Shown here: one piece after another, positions 1-16,906 of the stretch
Numbering within the stretch: the stretch's first letter is position 1
Layout of the letters: each line of letters begins with the position of its first letter
Source: Candidatus Hydrothermarchaeota archaeon
GTDB taxonomy: Archaea > CAYFZR01
DNA length: 17,149 nt
Reading direction: 5' to 3'
Assembly: GCA_046760505.1 (NCBI GenBank)
Contig: JBHIEG010000032.1
Span: forward strand, 1-17,149
Translations under genes and position numbers: made by a program
Notes under the pieces: model-generated
The model's input: only the letters and a program-made list of their open reading frames with translations
Databases searched by the model: none
Told to the model about the DNA's origin: nothing

Positions 1-18
1 AAGGTCGTGAGAAGGTCG

Positions 19-96
19 TGGTGGGGCCGCCGAGATTTGAACTCGAGTCTCGGACTCCCTAAGCCCGAAGGATGGACCAAGCTACCCTACGGCCCC
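19..96 (-). tRNA. tRNA-Pro, anticodon AGG, CCA encoded, no intron
   Basis: Reverse complement reads GGGGCCG TA GGGT AGCTTGGTCCA TCCT T CGGGC TT-AGG-GA GTCCG AGAC TCGAG TTCAAAT CTCGG CGGCCCC A CCA. It has a perfect 7-bp acceptor stem, a 5-bp anticodon stem (one G-U), U33/G37, a short variable loop and a TTCAAAT T-loop. The body is typical of archaeal tRNA-Pro. The anticodon is cct at 58-60 on the + strand. Confidence 0.95.
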
Positions 97-118
97 TTGT
101 TAACGATTATTGTATCAA

Positions 119-137
119 CCTTTTTAAAATTTTTTAG
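119..137 (-). promoter_or_regulatory. Putative BRE/TATA promoter of the tRNA gene
   Basis: Minus strand AAAAAAATTTTAAAAAGG, with TTTAAAAA about 25-32 nt upstream of the tRNA 5' end. Confidence 0.5.
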
Positions 138-165
138 TTGAGATTAAATCAACTTTTCGAGATCA

Positions 166-2028
166 CTATTTTCTGACGAGAAAACCAGCTAAAAATCCTA
201 AAACAAATGCAAATAGAGAGACTACAGCTATATGGACGTAACCTGATTTAGGAGTTTGGTAATTTGAAATAACGATTTTTGATGTCTGTTCTGTGATTAA
301 ATCTTTCTTATAAGTTTTTGAGTAGATTCTAGCCAATCCTTCCAAGATTTTTGCATGTTCTATGCCGTACTTGTAAAAAATCATTGAATGTACTGGGTCA
401 TCTTCTATTAATGTGTCGCCATATTCTAAATTATTCATGGCGGAAATTGGCTCTATTCCGATCGCTTTATCTTTTTTTATCGCTTTTATCAAATTTTCTT
501 TGTAAAAGAGTGCTTTTTCTTCCAATTGCTCTTTATTTTCTATTCCATAGGTTTCAAGGGCGATTTCCGCATTAACCTTTGCTTCAATTCCTGATGCGAG
601 GCTGGACAAGTAATCTCCCTCTGATAAATATTTTCTTGAGGAATCAAAACTATCTAGTGCATTACTTGTGAGATCGGACCCTCTTTCACCTAAAATAGTC
701 ACAGAGTAAGCTACGATTGTTTGAACGTATCCTACGTAATCTCTGGTAAAATCAGCCAGTCTATTCATTGATAATTTACTATCTTCAAATACCTCTGAGA
801 GACTTATCCATTCTTCTGCTGTTAGGGCTCTTTTCTTTGCAAATACCCCGAAATATAGTGCTTCTTTTTCATTACCAGAGTAATATTCCTTCCATGCTTT
901 CTTTAAGTTCTCATTTGCCTCATTTAACCTAGAAATAGCCTGGTATCTTACCTCTATATCATTTAAGGAATTTATCTCCGTTGAATTAATCTTCTCGGAT
1001 ATTTCTCCGATGTATTCCTCAGTTTCCTTAAGAAAAGTTTTCAGATCAGTTTTTGGATCTAAAAGTAATGCAAGATAATCTGCCTTTATATCAACGTTCA
1101 ATGCTTGACTCGCTGCCGAATAATACTTTTCTTGCTCATACAACTTATTGGCATTTTTGTAGTCTTCTTCTAACTTTTTTATCGTTTCTTTTGCTTGAGA
1201 ATACTCATTGTACCCGAGATTGGATTTGTCTAAGTTATTTTTCGCTTTTTTTAGGTTTTCATCTGCTTTTTTCAAGAGCTTCTCTGCAATATCCTTCATA
1301 ACATCTGATCTAGTCGATACTTCCGAAGATGGCTGCTCGATTTTTATTTCCTTTCCAAAATAATATTTTATAGCATCGTATATCGAACCAACCTCTTCCA
1401 CATCTATTTTCCAACGCTCCTTCGCATATTTTTTCACATTCACTTTAACCGGGTTTACGGTGATCTGCACTATCGGACCAATCGTTTGTCTTCTTTCAAC
1501 CCTTTCAGTTACAACTGTTTGACCCTCTGGTACGAGGAAAATTGATTTATTTGAAAGATAGGCAGCCTCTGCTTTGGCTAGAATGCCCCCAACAGGACCT
1601 ATGGATCCGTCAGGATTGATAGTTCCGGTCATTATTACCTCATCATTTGGTTGCCAGTTCAATAAACTGGCAATTACTCCAATGGTCATTGTGGCTCCAG
1701 CAGATGGACCTCCAACGATCATTGCATCAGATCTTACCGTAAAATAAAAATCATAGTCGTTAACATCTATTCCTAAGATGTCACAGGCAGTTCTAGCTGC
1801 AATTCTTGCAGATCCCTGCATATCCACCTGCGTAAGAGGTCTAGTATCTACGAATATTAATCCTGTTCCATTTTTCACGTCTACTATGATTTTTATCGGA
1901 ACGCCCTTAAATCCGGCATCTGTCTGAGTTACTGCGGGTGAAATAATTTCCACTGGTTTAGAAGAACCTATAGCGAAGATGTGCAGGAGTAAAACTAATG
2001 CTATCAAGGATATTACTATTTTCCTCAT
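166..2028 (-). CDS. Secreted, membrane-anchored Lon-type (S16) Ser-Lys dyad protease (archaeal serine protease, COG1750-like)
   Basis: N-terminal signal peptide, Lon protease motifs GGPSAG (Ser) and MTGTINPDGSIGPVGGILAKAEAA (Lys), long helical C-terminal region, C-terminal TM helix ending VRK. No Walker A/AAA+ domain. Confidence 0.88.
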   Translation of the reverse strand: MRKIVISLIALVLLLHIFAIGSSKPVEIISPAVTQTDAGFKGVPIKIIVDVKNGTGLIFVDTRPLTQVDMQGSARIAARTACDILGIDVNDYDFYFTVRSDAMIVGGPSAGATMTIGVIASLLNWQPNDEVIMTGTINPDGSIGPVGGILAKAEAAYLSNKSIFLVPEGQTVVTERVERRQTIGPIVQITVNPVKVNVKKYAKERWKIDVEEVGSIYDAIKYYFGKEIKIEQPSSEVSTRSDVMKDIAEKLLKKADENLKKAKNNLDKSNLGYNEYSQAKETIKKLEEDYKNANKLYEQEKYYSAASQALNVDIKADYLALLLDPKTDLKTFLKETEEYIGEISEKINSTEINSLNDIEVRYQAISRLNEANENLKKAWKEYYSGNEKEALYFGVFAKKRALTAEEWISLSEVFEDSKLSMNRLADFTRDYVGYVQTIVAYSVTILGERGSDLTSNALDSFDSSRKYLSEGDYLSSLASGIEAKVNAEIALETYGIENKEQLEEKALFYKENLIKAIKKDKAIGIEPISAMNNLEYGDTLIEDDPVHSMIFYKYGIEHAKILEGLARIYSKTYKKDLITEQTSKIVISNYQTPKSGYVHIAVVSLFAFVLGFLAGFLVRK

Positions 2029-2085
2029 GGGATTGGTGATAATTTAGGTTGAATAAAAAAGTTTCTGTGAGTTTCAAAGTTTAAA

Positions 2086-2101
2086 CCGAGAAGTTTTTAA
2101 A
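2086..2101 (+). promoter_or_regulatory. Putative BRE/TATA promoter of the thioredoxin gene
   Basis: CCGAGAAG followed by TTTTTAAA, about 23-30 nt upstream of the ATG at 2124, suggesting a leaderless transcript. Confidence 0.5.
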
Positions 2102-2123
2102 GGGAATTTTATGAATTTTTGAT

Positions 2124-2558
2124 ATGAGGGATAACCTGATATTTGTGGTATTGATCAGCATATTGGTTTTCATGGGCGTTTTCACCTATTTAAACCTTGA
2201 ATCATCAGGAAAATACGAAGATTATGAAAGAAAAATCGTTTATGATTACACTCCGGAGAAACTTCACATGGCGCTAACCAGTGGAAAGCCTACTTTATTA
2301 GAAATCGCCGCAGACTGGTGTCCTTACTGTAGAGAGATGGCACCAACGATGAACACTATAAAGGAAAAATACAAATCGGAGTTCAATATAATCACAGCCA
2401 ATGCAGATCTTGATCTTGACCTTGTTAGATATTACCAAGTTAAAGGTCTTCCCACTCTTGTATTCTTTGACAGGGAGGGGAAAGAAGTTTTTAAACTAGT
2501 TGGCTTTCAAGAGAAGGAAAAATTAGAGAAAATAATTGAAGAACTTATCCAAAAGTAA
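2124..2558 (+). CDS. Membrane-anchored thioredoxin-family protein
   Basis: N-terminal hydrophobic anchor, ADWCPYC active site, cis-Pro loop VKGLPTLVFFD, and C-terminal G-F-Q-E-K-E-K-L helix. Confidence 0.9.
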   Translation: MRDNLIFVVLISILVFMGVFTYLNLESSGKYEDYERKIVYDYTPEKLHMALTSGKPTLLEIAADWCPYCREMAPTMNTIKEKYKSEFNIITANADLDLDLVRYYQVKGLPTLVFFDREGKEVFKLVGFQEKEKLEKIIEELIQK

Positions 2559-3549
2559 CGTAGCTTTCTTGAATCTCTTTTTTTCTCTCGTTCAATACGA
2601 TATAAAAAGCGGAGATAAGACAGAATATCCAGCCAATTCCGGTAACCATTTCTGATTTAACCAAGTACATTACATCTACACTAGAAGAGATCTGGATAAC
2701 CTCCAAGTATATTCTTGAAAATGAAAGCGAGATTCCTAAAAATGATCCCAAGGTAAGATCCACTAGTAAGGATTTGTACTTTTCAATGTCTTCTAGCCTG
2801 TGCATTGTAACGGCGCCCAGCATGAGTCCGGGTATGGGCACTAGTATCTTTATGGGGAAAAGGAATACGGTCCCGATATATGCTAGTATAACTCCTGCAA
2901 TCCGTTTAGTTCTAACTCTCCATTCATATGATTTGGTAAGACCAGCAAGCCCTCCTGAAACTCCAGCGATGAATGTAGAAGGAATCATTGTTCCTATTCC
3001 AAACATAAGCACGACTAAGAAGGTAAGCATCAGATTTCTCGCGGGAAGACTGTTTATCACTATGAAAATTAAGGGTCCTAGAAGCTCGAGCCCGCACACA
3101 AAGGACAGAGCGAGACCCCAGAAAAATACAAGCGTGAGATTTGGGTTACCCTTTATCTTTATTTTTCCAAAAAATAACCTGCCAACACGCATAAAAGGAT
3201 TTTTAATCACCCCAATTAGGTGCAATCCAAATGAAAGCATTATTGTTCCGGCTATTAATTGAAATAAGAATATAAGATAAGGATTTTTTAGAGCAAAAAT
3301 TAATGCACTAGCAGTAATACCAAATACACTGAAAAATAAAATTCTTCCGGAATTGAATACTATTCCAGTGACTATTCCTTTTTTAAAGGTTCCATCTACT
3401 CCTGCCGTATAGGCTCCCAGTGGAAAGCCACAGGATGGGCATGTTATACCGCCCAGAAAGAGTCCGGCCAGAAATGATGCAAGCATGGGCGAACCCCTTG
3501 ATAACAAATCTATTGCAGTGAGAGTTTCATTAAAAGTTGGAAATGCCAT
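2545..3549 (-). CDS. CcdA/DsbD-beta-like (DsbD_2 / TauE-SafE-like) integral membrane protein
   Basis: Multi-TM protein with Cys in both pseudo-symmetric halves (GITCPSCGFP and SFVCGLELLGP), plus FNSGRI and MFGIGTMIP motifs typical of the family. Extra C-terminal TM segments. Confidence 0.7.
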   Translation of the reverse strand: MAFPTFNETLTAIDLLSRGSPMLASFLAGLFLGGITCPSCGFPLGAYTAGVDGTFKKGIVTGIVFNSGRILFFSVFGITASALIFALKNPYLIFLFQLIAGTIMLSFGLHLIGVIKNPFMRVGRLFFGKIKIKGNPNLTLVFFWGLALSFVCGLELLGPLIFIVINSLPARNLMLTFLVVLMFGIGTMIPSTFIAGVSGGLAGLTKSYEWRVRTKRIAGVILAYIGTVFLFPIKILVPIPGLMLGAVTMHRLEDIEKYKSLLVDLTLGSFLGISLSFSRIYLEVIQISSSVDVMYLVKSEMVTGIGWIFCLISAFYIVLNERKKEIQESYVTFG

Positions 3550-3738
3550 CTGAATCCCTTTTTTGCATTTGTTGTTTTAACTTTAGAAAATGATCTTTGT
3601 TTATATGTATTATGAACTGGTTATCTAAAAATAAAATGAAGGAAAAATTAAGCCTTCAATACACTTTTATATATGTTGTCTTCTTTAGCAAAATTCATAT
3701 ATAGAAATAATATTTTTTATATATTATCGGTGAGCGAT

Positions 3739-4737
3739 ATGGAATATAGAAAGGTTCAGATGACTGGTGGGAGCAGTTTTATTGTTTCTTTGCCAAAAAG
3801 ATGGGCAACCAACGTTGGAATCAAAGTTGGAGATGAATTAGGAATTATAGAACATGAAGACGGTAAATTAACCATTTCCCCAAGGTCCCACGAAATTACC
3901 AGCGAAAAAAAGATCAACATAGATCCCTCATTACCCGCAACACTATTGGAAAGGTTAATAGTTGCGAGTTATCTCGCCGGATACGATTTAATAAACATAA
4001 AATCTGTCTCCAGAATCACACCCGAACAAAGAGGAATCATCTCTGGTATAGCACGTAAGTTGATCGGTCCTGAGATCGTGGAGGAATCTAATGATTCAAT
4101 TCTGATACAAGATATTTTAAATTCTGGAGATCTTTCAGTTAAAAAGGCAATTAAAAGAATGCATATGATTGTATCCTCCATGCAGAAGGATGTTATCCAT
4201 GCATTGAAGGTGGGGGATGTTTATTTAGCAAGGGATGTTATCCAGAGGGACGATGATGTTGACAGACTCTATCTTTTGATCGTCAGGCAACTTGTCACAA
4301 GTGTTAGGCATCCAGTGACTGCTGATAATCTAAAGATCAAGACTACAGATACATTGGATCTCAGAATCGTGGCAAAAAGTTTAGAAAGAATAGGTGATCA
4401 TGCAGAGAAGATAGGTAGCGTGATCTGTGAAGATTCCCTTAAATTACCACCGCATGTTGTGGATCCTATATCGAACATGAATGAATTTGCTCTATACTTA
4501 CATAGAGAGGCTATGAAAGCTTTGTTCAAGGAAGACTTTAAATTGGCAAACCAGATAATCGAGAGAGAAAAAGAGATCTATAAAATTAAAGAAGAAATCC
4601 TCGAGGAGTTGTTGTACTCTGACGATGCTTGCATAATGCCCATGAAAATTGCTCTCATAACAGAAAGTTTAGAGAGGATAGCGAATTATGGCACCGATAT
4701 TGCAGAAATAGCGATAAACCAGTCAATCAAAGAATAG
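3739..4737 (+). CDS. phoU: Archaeal phosphate uptake regulator (AbrB-type N-terminal domain plus two PhoU domains)
   Basis: MEYRKVQMTGGSSFIVSLPKRWA N-terminus, with RDDDVDRLY, LERIGDHA and LERIANYGTDIAE PhoU motifs. Start moved from 3673 to ATG 3739, which follows a GGTGAG SD-like sequence. Confidence 0.92.
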   Translation: MEYRKVQMTGGSSFIVSLPKRWATNVGIKVGDELGIIEHEDGKLTISPRSHEITSEKKINIDPSLPATLLERLIVASYLAGYDLINIKSVSRITPEQRGIISGIARKLIGPEIVEESNDSILIQDILNSGDLSVKKAIKRMHMIVSSMQKDVIHALKVGDVYLARDVIQRDDDVDRLYLLIVRQLVTSVRHPVTADNLKIKTTDTLDLRIVAKSLERIGDHAEKIGSVICEDSLKLPPHVVDPISNMNEFALYLHREAMKALFKEDFKLANQIIEREKEIYKIKEEILEELLYSDDACIMPMKIALITESLERIANYGTDIAEIAINQSIKE

Positions 4738-4815: not shown

Positions 4816-6258
4816 ATGTCCTTGACGATATATAATACGCTAACAAAAAAGAAAGAAGAGTTTGTCCCCCTAGAAGAGGGAAGAGTAAAGATGTATACTT
4901 GCGGTTTAACGGTTAACGATTACATGCACATAGGACATGCGAGATGCTACATCTTCTGGGATGTACTTCAAAGATATCTTGAATATCTAGAATACGAGGT
5001 ATATCACGTCTCTAACATAACGGACATCAGCATAGACGAAAAAATTCTAAAAAGAATAAAAGAACTTGGAATAAGTTTCCAAGAGATAATCGAGTATTAT
5101 ACTAATGCATACTTTGAAGATAGATATGCCTTAGGGATATCAAGAGCCAACGTGCATCCCCTCGCTACTCAACATATACAGGAGATGATAGAGTTAATTC
5201 AAAAGTTAATCGAAAAAGGCTATGCATACATAGCTGAGGACGGAGTTTACTATGATATATCTAAATTTCAGGATTACGGTAAGCTCTCAGGAGTTAGACC
5301 CAAAGAATTGAAGGAAGGTGCTAGTGGGAGAATTGATTCGGATGAATATTCTAAGAAAGAGGTCGGTGATTTTTCTCTATGGAAAGCAGCAAAAAAAGAT
5401 GAGCCATACTGGTACAGTCCTTGGTTTGCTGGAAGACCTGGTTGGCATATAGAATGCTCAGCCATGTCTATGAAGTATCTTGGAGAAAGTTTTGATATTC
5501 ATGGTGGAGGAGAAGACAACATATTCCCTCACCACGAGAACGAGATCGCCCAGAGCGAGGGCGCTACGGGAAAACGATTCGTGAATTACTGGATGCACGT
5601 GAAGCACGTCCTCATGAACGGAGAAAAAATGTCTAAATCGCTGGGGAACTATATAACTGCTAGAGAAGCGATTTCAAAATATGGAGCCTCGCTTATTAGA
5701 TTTTTCCTTTTGTCAACGCATTATAGAAGCCAAATAGACTTCAACGAAAAAGATCTGGAAGCATCTAGAAAGAGACTTGAGAGACTTAAGAGCACGATAA
5801 ACATGGTTAGAAAGTTTGCTGAGCGCGTTGAGGAAAAAGCCTCTCGGGAAGATTCACTTATCAAGGGACTGGAAAAAACCAGAAAAGAATTTGAAGAGGC
5901 TATGAACAATGATTTTAACATTTCTCTGGCAATAAAATCTTTGATCGATCTAACGAAGGAAATAAATATATTTTTGAAAGAAAACAAAAAAATAAGTGGT
6001 GAAACTTCTAAAAAAATCTTTGACTTCTTTCAAGCATCGGGGAAAATTCTTTTTGGAGATTTATTTGAAAGGGAGATCGTGGAGACGCAAGATAGGTTAA
6101 CAGAGGATCTTATAGATCTGATAATCGAAATCAGAAAGAAAGCTAGAATGGAAAAAGATTTTGAAACCGCAGATAAAATAAGATCAAGGTTAAAAGAAAT
6201 AGGTATTGTGCTTGAAGACTATAAGGAAGAAACCATTTGGAAGATAAAACATGATTAA
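4816..6258 (+). CDS. cysS: Cysteine--tRNA ligase
   Basis: IYNTLT, MYTCG, HIGH, DFSLWK, GRPGWHIECSAM, DIHGGG..FPHHENE, KMSKSLGN and the ADKIR anticodon domain. Start taken at ATG 4816. Confidence 0.98.
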   Translation: MSLTIYNTLTKKKEEFVPLEEGRVKMYTCGLTVNDYMHIGHARCYIFWDVLQRYLEYLEYEVYHVSNITDISIDEKILKRIKELGISFQEIIEYYTNAYFEDRYALGISRANVHPLATQHIQEMIELIQKLIEKGYAYIAEDGVYYDISKFQDYGKLSGVRPKELKEGASGRIDSDEYSKKEVGDFSLWKAAKKDEPYWYSPWFAGRPGWHIECSAMSMKYLGESFDIHGGGEDNIFPHHENEIAQSEGATGKRFVNYWMHVKHVLMNGEKMSKSLGNYITAREAISKYGASLIRFFLLSTHYRSQIDFNEKDLEASRKRLERLKSTINMVRKFAERVEEKASREDSLIKGLEKTRKEFEEAMNNDFNISLAIKSLIDLTKEINIFLKENKKISGETSKKIFDFFQASGKILFGDLFEREIVETQDRLTEDLIDLIIEIRKKARMEKDFETADKIRSRLKEIGIVLEDYKEETIWKIKHD

Positions 6259-7154: not shown

Positions 7155-7895
7155 ATGAAATGCAAAAATTTCTCGGTAATCTTCCTTTTTTTAGTTCTTT
7201 TGATCAATGGTTGTATAATTGAGAAACCAGGAGAAGAGATAATCAAAAAAAAGGTCCCGGAGGTAAAGTCAACTATCATCAATAATGTGAGCATAGAATG
7301 GTTGGGTCATGCCTCATTTAAAGTTAGCGACGATGTGATCATTTATATAGATCCATATATACTTCCAGAGGGCGCTGAAAAGGCAGATCTGATACTGGTA
7401 ACGCACGAACACTTCGATCACTGCGACCCGAATAGAATAAATCAAATCAGAAAAGATGACACAGTGATTGTAACAACGTCTGCTTGTGCGAATAAGCTGA
7501 AGGATGTAATAACGGTAAAATCTGGGGATAAACTAAATGTAAGAGGCGTTCCAATAGAGGTTGTACTGGCTTATAATGTGGAAAAACCATACCATCCCAA
7601 AGGAAGGGGAGTCGGCTTTGTATTTGAAATACATGGTCTAAGAATCTATCATGCCGGAGACACGGATTTCATACCTGAGATGAAAAATTTAAGAGAAATA
7701 GACGTTGCCTTGCTGCCCATTGGGGGAACTTACACGATGGATGAGGAGGAGGCATCAGAGGCTGTTAAGGCAATAAACCCAAAGATCGTCATTCCAATGC
7801 ACTACAACTACATTGAGAATACGGAGGCAGATCCGATCAAATTTAAATCCCTCGCAAGTGAAAAAGATCCAAGAGTAGAGGTAAGAATATTATAG
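7155..7895 (+). CDS. MBL-fold metallo-hydrolase (UlaG-like), predicted lipoprotein
   Basis: WLGHASF, IDPY, THEHFDH (HxHxDH), YHAGDT, LPIGGTYTM and IPMHY motifs. N-terminal hydrophobic signal ending LLINGC (lipobox-like). Confidence 0.88.
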   Translation: MKCKNFSVIFLFLVLLINGCIIEKPGEEIIKKKVPEVKSTIINNVSIEWLGHASFKVSDDVIIYIDPYILPEGAEKADLILVTHEHFDHCDPNRINQIRKDDTVIVTTSACANKLKDVITVKSGDKLNVRGVPIEVVLAYNVEKPYHPKGRGVGFVFEIHGLRIYHAGDTDFIPEMKNLREIDVALLPIGGTYTMDEEEASEAVKAINPKIVIPMHYNYIENTEADPIKFKSLASEKDPRVEVRIL

Positions 7896-10185: not shown

Positions 10186-11121
10186 TTAGTACATGTATCC
10201 GAGCACGTCTCTTATGTTTTTCACATATTCCACATTTATGCCAATATTCTTTTCTATATATCTCTCTGCATCCACTATCACAGGTCTCTTCTCTGTAATT
10301 ATAATCCCTGCTATTTCCCTTTTCCTCTCTCCCCATAGCATTAGGTCATGATTCTCCCATGGGATGAATATCATAGTCTTTCCTGCCTTCTTGGCTGCTT
10401 GAGCCTTCTCAACAATACCGCTAACTCCTCCGATGTTCCCCTCAAGGTCTATGGTCCCGGTCATGGTTATACTTCTGGGTATTTTCTTCTCATTTATTGC
10501 AGAAATTACCATGAGCGTCATCAATGCTCCAGCACTCGGCCCGTCTACTTCTGAAACTTCTTTTCCCGAGGTCACGCTAAATATAACGTCGCAGTTGCTT
10601 AAGTCTTTTCCTGTGTACTTTTGAGCCACGTATACTGCGGTATTCGCTGCATCCTGAAATATCACACCCATGGCGGGTTTCGTAACCACAAGAACTCTAC
10701 CTTTTCCGGGCGTTATCTCTACTGAGATTTCCATCATAACTCCTTCAAGGGTTAATTTTCGCTCTAAAAAAGGGTAATCGCCTATATATTCAACTTTTTG
10801 TCTAACGGCTGGCGCATCAAGTTCTGCAGAACTAAATATTGTATAATTTGTTGTTTTTTTAACGCTCTCCAATTCTTTTACTCTCTGTCTGTAAATTTCA
10901 GTCTGTTTTTTATAGTATTGAAGGGTTAGATTTAGTTGGTGTAGTTTCTGTTCAAGCAACATATTTCTTTCCTGTAAATCAATGATTTCTTCCTGAAGCA
11001 TTTTGATTTTTTCTTCATCAGAATATTTAACACAGTTCGTTGATAAAACGGTAATTAAAACTGAAAAAACTACAATGAACGTTCCTTTCTTAATCCTAGA
11101 ACTAGCCTGGCTTTTGGGCAT
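10186..11121 (-). CDS. Membrane-anchored Lon-type (S16) protease with coiled-coil stalk, no ATPase domain
   Basis: N-terminal TM helix, about 55 aa of heptad-like coiled coil, then DGPSAG (Ser) and MTGTIDLEGNIGGVSGIVEKAQAA (Lys). Confidence 0.87.
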   Translation of the reverse strand: MPKSQASSRIKKGTFIVVFSVLITVLSTNCVKYSDEEKIKMLQEEIIDLQERNMLLEQKLHQLNLTLQYYKKQTEIYRQRVKELESVKKTTNYTIFSSAELDAPAVRQKVEYIGDYPFLERKLTLEGVMMEISVEITPGKGRVLVVTKPAMGVIFQDAANTAVYVAQKYTGKDLSNCDVIFSVTSGKEVSEVDGPSAGALMTLMVISAINEKKIPRSITMTGTIDLEGNIGGVSGIVEKAQAAKKAGKTMIFIPWENHDLMLWGERKREIAGIIITEKRPVIVDAERYIEKNIGINVEYVKNIRDVLGYMY

Positions 11122-15229: not shown

Positions 15230-16906
15230 GTGGAGGAGAAAAAGAAAAAATTAGCATATCTGGCGGAAATTTCATCCCGCGATAGCAAAGAATTCCTGGA
15301 TAGGTTATTTGAGCCTGAGCCTGTTAAAGGTGAGAAGATTTTAAAAGAGGTTAGAAGTGAGGTCAAAGATAAGGCACTTTCCCCAACCATGGAAAAATTG
15401 ATCAAAAAGGTCCCTTCTTTGAATCGCGTAATCAGGGGATTTGGAAAATCAAGAACAATCGATGCCTATGGCAAGGTTGAAATCATGGAAGTCAAGGGAG
15501 AAACAGTTCCGCTCTACTTCGTTAACTTACCTCAATTGGCAACAAAAGAAAAGGAGTTGCTGGATGAGGTAAAAGATATTGCAATCGTAGAAATGGATAT
15601 CGATCCTGATTCAATACCAGACCCGATAAAGCGCCGTACGGTATTCATGGATAAAGTAGAAGAGCTCATTAAGAGTAAAAATCCATCTTTGCCCAGTGGA
15701 AGAAGAAAAATATTGGCGGAGTTGATAGTCTCTGATATGATTGGATACGGTCCGCTTGATCACTTAGTGGCTGATGACGATCTTGAAGATATAATGGTAA
15801 TAGGTACAAAAAAGCCTGTTTATGTTGTCCACAGAAAATACGAAGTTTGCAAGACAAATATTGTTTTTGAAAATGAAGAAGAAATAAAATCCATTATAGA
15901 TAAAATTGCTAGACCCATAGGAAGGAGAATAGACCAACAAACACCTTTGCTGGATGCAAGGCTTCCTGATGGGAGCAGGGTGCACGCAACTATACCACCT
16001 GTTTCGTTAGATGGTCCTACTCTAACGATTTCGAAATTCAGGGAGGATCCGCTAACGGTAATAGACTTGATGAACTTCAATACGTTAAATCCTGAACTCG
16101 CTGCTTTCTTGTGGGTATGCGTAGAAGGTTTGGGCATAAAACCAGCTAACGTTCTCTGCGCCGGAGGGAGCAGTTGTGGAAAAACTACCACCGTTAACGT
16201 GCTAGCCACATTCGTTCCAGATACCGAGAGGGTGATTACAATTGAGGACACGGCTGAACTCAAGCTTCCTCTTACCCACTGGATAAGATTTGAAACTAGG
16301 CCTCCGAACATAGAGGGTCGTGGTGAGATAACAATGGACGATCTGGTCAAAAATACCCTCAGAATGAGACCAGATAGAATCATTGTGGGTGAAGTAAGAG
16401 GCACTGAGGCAAGAACATTGTTTACAGCCATGAATACAGGACACGATGGATGTATGGGTACTATACATGCTAATACTGCACAAGAAACAATCACTCGGTT
16501 AACTAATCCCCCAATGGAAGTTCCTGAGATTATGGTTCCTGCCTTGGATTTGATAATAATGCAGAAGAGGATACACCACAGAGAAAAAGGGGTTTTGAGG
16601 AGAATAACAGAAATTGCAGAGGTAGTCGGTATGGAAGGCGGAAAAATCCAGCTAAACAAGATATATGAGTGGGATCCAATGACGGATAACATAAAGCCAA
16701 CAGACGTACCCTGCAGATTGAAACAGGAAATTGCAGAGTATTCCGGACTAACAGGTGATGAAATTAACGTAGAAATCAAAAAGAGAGAAATCGTCCTTGA
16801 ATGGTTAAGAGAACAAGGCATTAGAGATGTAAACGCTGTTGGAAGGGAAATTCAGGCTTTTTACCAAGACCCTGATAAGTACTTGGAGAGAATACTGGAA
16901 AAATAA
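15230..16906 (+). CDS. CpaF/TadA/VirB11-family type II/IV secretion (pilus assembly) ATPase
   Basis: GYGPLD, DARLPDGSRV, Walker A GGSSCGKTT, Asp box TIEDTAEL, Walker B LRMRPDRIIVGEVRG and His box TGHDGCMGTIHA. GGAGGA SD before the GTG start. Confidence 0.95.
   Translation: MEEKKKKLAYLAEISSRDSKEFLDRLFEPEPVKGEKILKEVRSEVKDKALSPTMEKLIKKVPSLNRVIRGFGKSRTIDAYGKVEIMEVKGETVPLYFVNLPQLATKEKELLDEVKDIAIVEMDIDPDSIPDPIKRRTVFMDKVEELIKSKNPSLPSGRRKILAELIVSDMIGYGPLDHLVADDDLEDIMVIGTKKPVYVVHRKYEVCKTNIVFENEEEIKSIIDKIARPIGRRIDQQTPLLDARLPDGSRVHATIPPVSLDGPTLTISKFREDPLTVIDLMNFNTLNPELAAFLWVCVEGLGIKPANVLCAGGSSCGKTTTVNVLATFVPDTERVITIEDTAELKLPLTHWIRFETRPPNIEGRGEITMDDLVKNTLRMRPDRIIVGEVRGTEARTLFTAMNTGHDGCMGTIHANTAQETITRLTNPPMEVPEIMVPALDLIIMQKRIHHREKGVLRRITEIAEVVGMEGGKIQLNKIYEWDPMTDNIKPTDVPCRLKQEIAEYSGLTGDEINVEIKKREIVLEWLREQGIRDVNAVGREIQAFYQDPDKYLERILEK

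Follow-up and report, generated by a model that had tools for sequence, protein, structure and literature searches.

Does an archaeon possess, and make use of, a proline tRNA with adenosine at the wobble position of its anticodon (A34)? The question is raised by a tRNA-Pro(AGG) gene near one end of the window, by which is meant the whole 17,149-nt stretch of DNA analysed here, an entire contig (C32) of a 2.17-Mb, 142-contig assembly with 38% GC whose MAG estimates are 100% completeness and 5.67% contamination. Such a gene challenges what textbooks and reviews teach, namely that G34 serves the pyrimidine-ending codons of archaea, which possess no A34 tRNAs and no A34 deaminase. In the accessible text of three reviews, A34 tRNA genes and A34 deaminases are stated to be absent from archaea (PMC11066159, PMC8879553, PMC8007984). 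The preliminary description of the locus made the same claim, which agrees with these reviews and has to be qualified by five sporadic ANN genes among 167 archaeal genomes reported in the available part of a survey (PMC6000648): Leu-AAG in Ferroplasma, Val-AAC in Methanohalobium, Gly-ACC in Natrinema and Arg-ACG in two genomes, none being Pro-AGG. According to Table S3 of this survey, a tRNA for CCU was found in no genome, and Nanoarchaeum was the only DPANN-type genome included. A 2026 preprint, in the portion available, reports three ANN tRNAs among 10,517 tRNAs of 220 archaea (bioRxiv 10.64898/2026.05.15.725136). No report of an archaeal or DPANN Pro(AGG) tRNA was found in the literature.

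The tRNA-Pro(agg) called by ARAGORN at 19-96 on the minus strand is the single tRNA in the whole window. It is 78 nt long with an encoded CCA at 19-21, and it scores 48.2 bits with RF00005 (gathering score 29), compared with 48.5, 54.3 and 37.5 bits for the GGG, UGG and intron-bearing CGG sister proline tRNAs, respectively. The cloverleaf drawn for it is regular, with a 7-bp acceptor stem, a 5-bp T stem with GTTCAAATC loop, a 4-nt variable loop, and an anticodon arm whose 7-nt loop UUAGGGA is closed by the 5-bp stem CGGGC/GUCCG containing one G30.U40 wobble; a U26-A44 pair lengthens the anticodon-stem stack. The anticodon occupies 58-60 on the minus strand, where A34 is base 60 (T on the plus strand), G35 is base 59 and G36 is base 58. 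Two further minus-strand bases distinguish the gene from its UGG paralogue, namely U40 at base 54 (C40 in the paralogue) and U17 in the D-loop at base 80. U33 and G18-G19, as expected of a canonical elongator tRNA, were found as well, and G35, G36, G37, A73 and G1-C72 are the same as in the GGG, UGG and CGG genes of the genome. These positions are determinants for ProRS and Trm5, and the combination of G1-C72 and A73 is an archaeal identity trait of tRNA-Pro.

An A-run with a TTTTAAAAA box, which resembles a BRE/TATA element and may be the promoter, lies at 121-135 on the minus strand, about 25-39 nt upstream of the mature 5' end and centred about 29 nt upstream of it. Judged by eye, A-rich and TATA-like boxes stand at a similar distance before many tRNA genes of this genome, such as tRNA-Cys. 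On the other side, the 3' trailer (1-18, minus strand) ends with the contig, only 18 nt from the gene, and forms the start of a hairpin repeat that every proline tRNA gene of the genus has on its 3' side. Thus, the intact, CCA-ending gene, the UU-AGG-GA loop on its CGGGC/GUCCG stem and the promoter-like element were all seen much as the preliminary description had them. A sub-threshold tmRNA match at the window start in the first Rfam scan was discarded in view of the direct RF00005 score; the tRNA gene had appeared in that scan only as a tmRNA match because overlapping clan members were removed from the listing. As for the encoded CCA, it was present in all four proline tRNA genes of the focal genome and in none of the four in the second species of the genus, and roughly one third of all tRNA genes of the focal genome encode it (by eye).

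That second species (G001) belongs to the same genus and is the only further genome of the phylum in the genome collection searched. It has a 97% identical tRNA-Pro(AGG) gene (C81:5424-5499), which differs from the focal one at two D-loop bases only. The markers U17, A34 and U40 are common to the AGG genes of both species and absent from each genome's own UGG gene. The flanking coding DNA of the two genomes is about 75-87% identical, and no match was found between their intergenic DNA upstream of the AGG gene. One further metagenome contig, identified by an exact anticodon-arm scan, carries a G001-type AGG gene with its upstream flank and may not be an independent sample.

The allele at base 60 was examined in four DNA runs (X1-X4) of one hydrothermal-vent study, which contain 0.93-0.96 of the sampled words of window 1-4000, and Logan contigs instead of raw reads were placed on window 1-600. 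No RNA run with window 1-4000 turned up. Runs X2 and X3 each yielded a 5,530-nt contig covering bases 24 to 600 with zero differences, including the AGG anticodon, and in X4 bases 24-97 and 68-600 were tiled by two difference-free contigs. Where X2, X3 and X4 show other letters at bases 54 and 60, these come from contigs of the UGG paralogue, to which the AGG contigs are equal in depth, and the loose contig ends run on into the 3' hairpin repeat. Run X1 is different: all three contigs over base 60 carry U34 and C40, with a summed depth of 120.1 that equals the whole depth there, and a 4,776-nt UGG contig with A on the plus strand at base 60 extends through the unique flank to base 600. Bases 54 and 60 switch together in this run, and the flank contig has two differences, not three, so U17 was probably retained. 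We read the locus of the X1 population as one that may have been converted to UGG by the paralogue; contigs drop rare variants, and a minority AGG allele may also exist in X1. The presence of UGG at this locus means that A34 is dispensable there and exposed to gene conversion. At contig level, base 60 therefore reads as AGG joined to unique flank in X2, X3 and X4 and as UGG in X1, which upholds the anticodon in three runs and denies it in one. The base error that had been raised as an alternative is contradicted by the same gene with the same markers in G001 and by the AGG contigs in three of the four runs. A34 is no sequencing error, and the gene is real.

Four proline tRNAs are the focal genome's own: AGG on C32, GGG on C9, UGG on C33, and an intron-bearing CGG on C14 that ARAGORN miscalled as Leu. 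The same four occur in G001 (AGG on its C81 and GGG on its C32), and the GGG, UGG and CGG genes are syntenic between the two genomes. Since GGG, UGG and CGG are all present, the AGG tRNA is a redundant fourth isoacceptor, and the replacement of one of them by AGG, which had been considered for this lineage, was found in neither genome. The preliminary description had also regarded a redundant and unexpressed copy, together with relatives carrying another anticodon at the same gene, as decisive against its reading; the copy is indeed redundant with GGG, and the relative carries AGG and no other anticodon. Within the focal genome, the AGG and UGG genes differ at three positions only (17, 34 and 40). 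Moreover, in each species the base at 20b is that of the UGG paralogue, and hence the AGG and UGG genes exchange sequence; part of the conservation of the AGG backbone could come from such conversion rather than from selection on the AGG copy.

No credible A34 tRNA other than Pro(AGG) was called by ARAGORN in the focal genome or in G001, where 39 ARAGORN calls on the remaining Rfam matches were considered along with the four proline tRNAs and tRNA-Cys, so the suggestion that other ANN tRNAs might accompany it in the lineage was not borne out. Two calls in the focal genome were rejected: a 'Phe-aaa' on C112, which reflects arbitrary intron placement in a multi-intron tRNA, and an 'Ile-tat' on C1 with a poor fold and 37% GC. 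The former (C112:2143-2267) is rich in GC and has about 47 bases in excess, probably comprising more than one intron, and Phe-aaa is not credible for it; tRNA-Ala(UGC) is otherwise missing from the focal tRNA set. Two additional proline tRNAs on short contigs of the focal MAG are probably contamination, namely a bacterial-type one with C1-G72 (C130:30-105) and a foreign archaeal Pro(GGG) without encoded CCA (C129:1741-1817).

All four proline tRNA genes of the focal assembly lie at contig ends, owing to the 3' hairpin repeat that they share. A hairpin of the GACCTTCTAAAAGGTC type follows all proline tRNA genes of the genus, and a second hairpin follows some of them; compensatory changes between copies and species preserve both stems. 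In the focal genome, the first hairpin motif was found only 3' of proline tRNAs (three matches). It might serve for processing of the 3' trailer or for termination, or else as a site of recombination. Repeats of 50-170 bp at the C81 locus of G001 (5495-5650 and 7277-7340) are scattered over many focal contigs and look like a small family of hairpin or MITE-like elements.

The codon usage of the focal genome was also examined. CCU is its commonest proline codon (35% of proline codons), and no proline-specific codon-usage signal was found, the share of CCU (0.35) being close to those of CUU (0.35), GUU (0.36) and UCU (0.39). The comparison of CCU and CCC usage proposed in the preliminary description thus revealed a proline box like the other four-codon boxes.

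With regard to its surroundings, the genes of the window are housekeeping genes (CysRS, TruD, PTH2, thioredoxin, PhoU, and endonuclease III). A protein-cluster search with this CysRS yielded bacterial-labelled clusters alone, which say nothing on the lineage. The 5' neighbours of the AGG gene differ between the two species. In G001, the orthologue of the 620-aa gene of the window abuts the orthologue of focal C11:31728-33191, and the AGG gene abuts the orthologue of focal C11:33237-34985; the two C11 segments are adjacent in the focal genome. From BLAST coordinates and a comparison of window 97-165 with C27 and C81 of G001, we infer that these junctions would fit one inversion, with breakpoints directly 5' of the AGG tRNA and between C11:33191 and 33237. 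A scan of 18 ORFs on the 5' side of the gene (17 kb) revealed no integrase or transposase family. In two proteins of the window, of 620 aa (166-2028, minus strand) and 311 aa (10186-11121, minus strand), the Lon C-terminal protease domain alone was recognised, and the remainder of the 620-aa protein had no family match.

To examine the distribution of such tRNAs, a pattern for archaeal tRNA-Pro with AGG, in which the stems were not included, was scanned over the species-genome collection. It found 54 further loci, all of which were called tRNA-Pro(agg) by ARAGORN. They are spread over 52 genomes, two of which contain a pair of copies. By our own estimate, less than one chance match would be expected, and the reversed pattern gave none in 50 genomes. 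According to their record labels, 44 of the loci come from Woese-, Pace-, Nano-, Micr-, Parv-, Iain- and Aenigm-archaeota, Nanopusillus or Altiarchaeales, which we take to be DPANN-type groups; the remaining ones come from eight other archaea (one being G001), one Methanosarcinales and one Hydrothermarchaeales. The 38 distinct AGG tRNA sequences aligned, for which 36 from the pattern loci (including that of G001) were taken in plus the window's own, share a cloverleaf with compensatory changes in 13 of 20 pairs. Pro(AGG) is therefore far more widespread than the focal lineage, for which alone it had been described, these further genes coming mostly from DPANN-type MAGs of tiny-celled archaea. 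In a sample of relatives from other archaeal genomes, 24 of 28 loci were proline tRNAs and none was AGG.

Further typing indicated which isoacceptors accompany AGG. Most of 15 ARMAN-type genomes have two or three further full-length relatives of the AGG tRNA by BLAST, and 13 of these loci, a part of the BLAST matches, were typed as eight UGG, four CGG, one Lys and no GGG. In an ARMAN-5-type genome (G086) with 45 Rfam matches and 44 ARAGORN calls, the set comprises Pro AGG/UGG/CGG and Leu AAG/UAG/CAG with no Pro-GGG and no Leu-GAG; the Ala, Arg, Val, Thr and Ser boxes retain G34, and no Gly-GCC was called, one Rfam match being uncalled. Five Woese/Pace-type genomes gave five AGG, four UGG, three CGG, one Gln and no GGG (BLAST and ARAGORN). 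A GGG pattern applied to 50 AGG-carrying genomes matched in three, and two of the four matched places are really UGG loops. Its misses are weak evidence, because a UGG control pattern was insensitive, matching in only 15 of the 50 and in none of the ARMAN-type genomes that BLAST shows to have UGG. Apart from the focal genus, the MAGs labelled Methanosarcinales and Hydrothermarchaeales were the only ones in which a true GGG was found alongside AGG. In the DPANN-type genomes whose proline set was typed, AGG replaces GGG.

The origin of A34 may differ between these lineages. The ARMAN-type AGG tRNA and the foreign GGG tRNA on C129 have the same anticodon arm apart from position 34, which suggests a G-to-A origin in the ARMAN-type lineages, as opposed to a duplicated UGG gene in the focal genus. 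A tRNA-Leu(AAG) was also observed in ARMAN/Parvarchaeota-type genomes, one of them about 1.3 kb from tRNA-Pro(CGG), and since Leu(AAG) stands in place of Leu(GAG) in one complete set, two boxes (Leu and Pro) have A34 tRNAs in this clade. Ferroplasma and ARMAN cells share the acid-mine habitat. Two AGG copies were found in an ARMAN-4 genome and in one Nanoarchaeota-labelled MAG, at contig ends in the latter, and tRNA-Arg(GCG) adjoins one of the copies in each.

Whether A34 might be deaminated to inosine was addressed by profile searches. In both the focal genome and G001, PF00383 and PF14437 identified one gene, encoding a 150-aa CDA-fold protein whose best NCBIfam match is ComEB (dCMP-deaminase type; 127 bits, below the model cutoff of 219), and which scores 35 bits with the TadA model NF008113 (cutoff 150) in a protein scan. 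The TadA model gave no more than 22 bits against the same cutoff on five genomes (focal, G001 and three other AGG-carrying ones). PF02137 (ADAT1/ADAR) also had no match, and this search was weak because control genomes were equally silent. Thus, no known A34 deaminase of the TadA/ADAT type was found in either genome, and the lack of such an enzyme, claimed for the window alone in the preliminary description, extends to both genomes, with the ComEB/dCMP-deaminase-like gene as the only CDA-fold gene. As far as known deaminase families go, the locus combines A34 in a four-codon box with no A34 deaminase gene, as expected for an unmodified A34; a TadA/ADAT system would be expected to include a TadA/ADAT2-type gene and to lack the GGG isoacceptor, which is present in both species. 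Among 50 AGG-carrying genomes, 31 have CDA-fold genes and 19 gave no match, some perhaps because the MAGs may be incomplete; nearly all of the encoded proteins are dCMP-deaminase-like and three are guanine-deaminase-like (by eye). In both species, the only CDA-fold gene precedes tRNA-Ala(CGC) on the same strand by about 80 nt (focal C10:15702-16154 and 16233-16308; C52 of G001).

Several explanations of the locus can be weighed against these data. That A34 results from a sequencing or assembly error, a chimera at the contig end, or contaminant DNA in the MAG might be suspected because only 18 nt separate the gene from the contig end, within a repeat common to four genes, and because the MAG has an estimated contamination of 5.67% and contains the bacterial tRNA-Pro on C130 and the foreign archaeal one on C129. 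Against this suspicion, the identical anticodon and markers recur in G001 and in the further metagenome contig, difference-free contigs run from base 24 into the unique flank (5,530 nt in both X2 and X3, tiled in X4), the AGG contigs are as deep as the contig of the UGG paralogue, and the flank shares about 80% identity with G001. Within the limits of contig-level data, this explanation is refuted, and we regard it as scarcely credible. It is also very improbable that an integrated mobile element with proline tRNA genes as its attachment sites carried the AGG copy in or duplicated it. The 3' repeat common to all proline tRNA genes, the neighbours that differ between the two species, and the repeats and multi-copy DNA 3' of the AGG gene in G001 would agree with such an element, whereas the tRNA gene is full-length and not just a 3' fragment, housekeeping genes occupy the 17 kb 5' of it, with no integrase or transposase family in the 18 ORFs scanned, and a single inversion would fit the altered neighbourhood; an element may still lie on the focal 3' side, which is unassembled.

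The other explanations concern how a real tRNA is used. The reading that we hold, with modest confidence, to be the probable one is that of a genuine fourth proline tRNA, which would have arisen, prior to the divergence of the phylum's two known species, by duplication of the tRNA-Pro(UGG) gene and mutation of U34 to A, would have been kept intact since then, and would be used with unmodified A34 for CCU. The gene would be transcribed from its own BRE/TATA-like promoter, and the transcript processed and charged with proline by ProRS, the charging being expected because G35, G36, G37, A73 and G1-C72 are as in the sister proline tRNAs. Unmodified A34 would then form a Watson-Crick pair with CCU and might pair weakly with CCC. 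Reading of CCC by proline tRNAs with A34 is conceivable in general, and the strong G-C pairs at the first two codon positions make the proline box tolerant of weak wobble. In function, this tRNA would overlap with tRNA-Pro(GGG) and may be helpful or nearly neutral, not essential. That A34 proline tRNAs can decode follows from the typed DPANN-type genomes, in which A34 is the sole purine-34 proline tRNA found, and function of such tRNAs in archaea is also supported by the 54 loci called tRNA-Pro(agg) and the compensatory changes in their cloverleaf. A possible but rather doubtful alternative is a near-neutral spare UGG copy with a mutated anticodon, little used, whose backbone is kept mainly by gene conversion from UGG. 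Its redundancy with GGG, the UGG/C40 locus of run X1, the D-loop base 20b that follows the UGG paralogue in each species, and the missing codon-usage signature would all suit this alternative, as would the finding, in the accessible part of the preprint, that proL-AGG is tolerated by E. coli with no fitness change (bioRxiv 10.64898/2026.05.15.725136). However, conversion should also erase the markers U17, A34 and U40, which both species have retained despite the exchange with UGG, no stem-breaking change is seen in the marker-carrying stretch 17-40, the promoter-like box is kept, and AGG is the only purine-34 proline tRNA found in other archaea typed. The persistence of the markers and the undamaged stems argue for selection on the AGG copy, and the redundancy with GGG and the UGG allele of X1 argue that any benefit of this tRNA would be small. 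A functional tRNA whose A34 is turned into inosine by an unrecognised enzyme (the ComEB-like CDA-fold protein or an unknown family), so that IGG reads CCU, CCC and CCA, is unlikely. It would accord with the AGG, UGG and CGG sets without GGG in the DPANN-type genomes typed, one complete set also having Leu AAG for GAG, an arrangement that accompanies I34 in eukaryotes according to the available text of PMC8879553, and with the HAE and PCxxC motifs of the CDA-fold protein in the focal genome, G001 and 31 of 50 AGG-carrying genomes. These proteins nevertheless score as dCMP deaminases, with at most 35 bits (protein) or 22 bits (five genomes) for the TadA model against a cutoff of 150; 19 of the 50 genomes, incomplete MAGs perhaps among them, have no CDA-fold match; the ADAT1/ADAR-type domain was not found in a weak search with silent controls; and GGG coexists with AGG in the focal genus, whereas the G34 isoacceptor is absent from codon boxes using I34 in the accessible portion of PMC8879553. 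Conversely, failure to find a known deaminase family is no proof of unmodified A34.

Taken together, the locus is a real, conserved and locally redundant A34 proline tRNA, which points to a broader, apparently undescribed use of A34 in DPANN-type archaea. Such genes may provide natural test cases for whether unmodified A34 can serve a whole codon box and why it is so rare, questions so far approached mostly in engineered bacteria. In addition, pipelines for the annotation of archaeal MAGs and codon models should not treat ANN anticodons as errors, and the absence of ANN tRNAs has been used in arguments on the tRNA set of the last common ancestor, as seen in the available part of PMC6000648. 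If inosine were made instead, a new tRNA-editing enzyme would await discovery. There is a small chance that the A34-tRNA archaea, from the vent phylum to many DPANN-type clades, have a new kind of wobble A-to-I deaminase, for example a recruited dCMP-deaminase-like enzyme, which would be an independent invention of eukaryote-style I34 decoding.

Among known systems, the eukaryotic tRNA-Pro(AGG), edited to IGG by ADAT2/ADAT3, is like the focal tRNA in its anticodon and four-codon box, and the eukaryotic proline set of AGG, UGG and CGG without GGG is the same as that of the DPANN-type genomes typed. In contrast to eukaryotes, the focal genus has no ADAT2/TadA homologue, keeps GGG, and has an archaeal tRNA backbone (G1-C72 and A73). 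In bacteria, TadA acts with tRNA-Arg(ACG) and, in some Lactobacillales, with tRNA-Leu(AAG), which provides prokaryotic examples of A34 in a four-codon box as here; Leu(AAG) is common to the Lactobacillales cases and the ARMAN-type archaeal genomes. Unlike this bacterial system, the TadA model reaches at most 35 bits (cutoff 150) here, and arginine keeps GCG in these archaea. A natural tRNA with unmodified A34 is the Mycoplasma tRNA-Thr(AGU). The favoured model of an unmodified A34 is exemplified by the engineered proL G34A tRNA-Pro(AGG) of E. coli and Salmonella, with A34 in a four-codon box and no deaminase acting; that of E. coli is unmodified and tolerated, as described in the accessible portion of the preprint (bioRxiv 10.64898/2026.05.15.725136). 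These are laboratory mutants of a GGG gene, whereas the focal gene is natural, derived from UGG and conserved across species. Finally, the ANN gains described in the available text of PMC6000648 resemble the focal gene in that the anticodon of a resident isoacceptor changed with no codon-usage shift and no deaminase. Like a species-specific gain of this kind, the focal gene is derived from a resident (UGG) gene; unlike those single-genome gains, it is present in both known species of the phylum, and Pro(AGG) is clade-wide in DPANN-type lineages.
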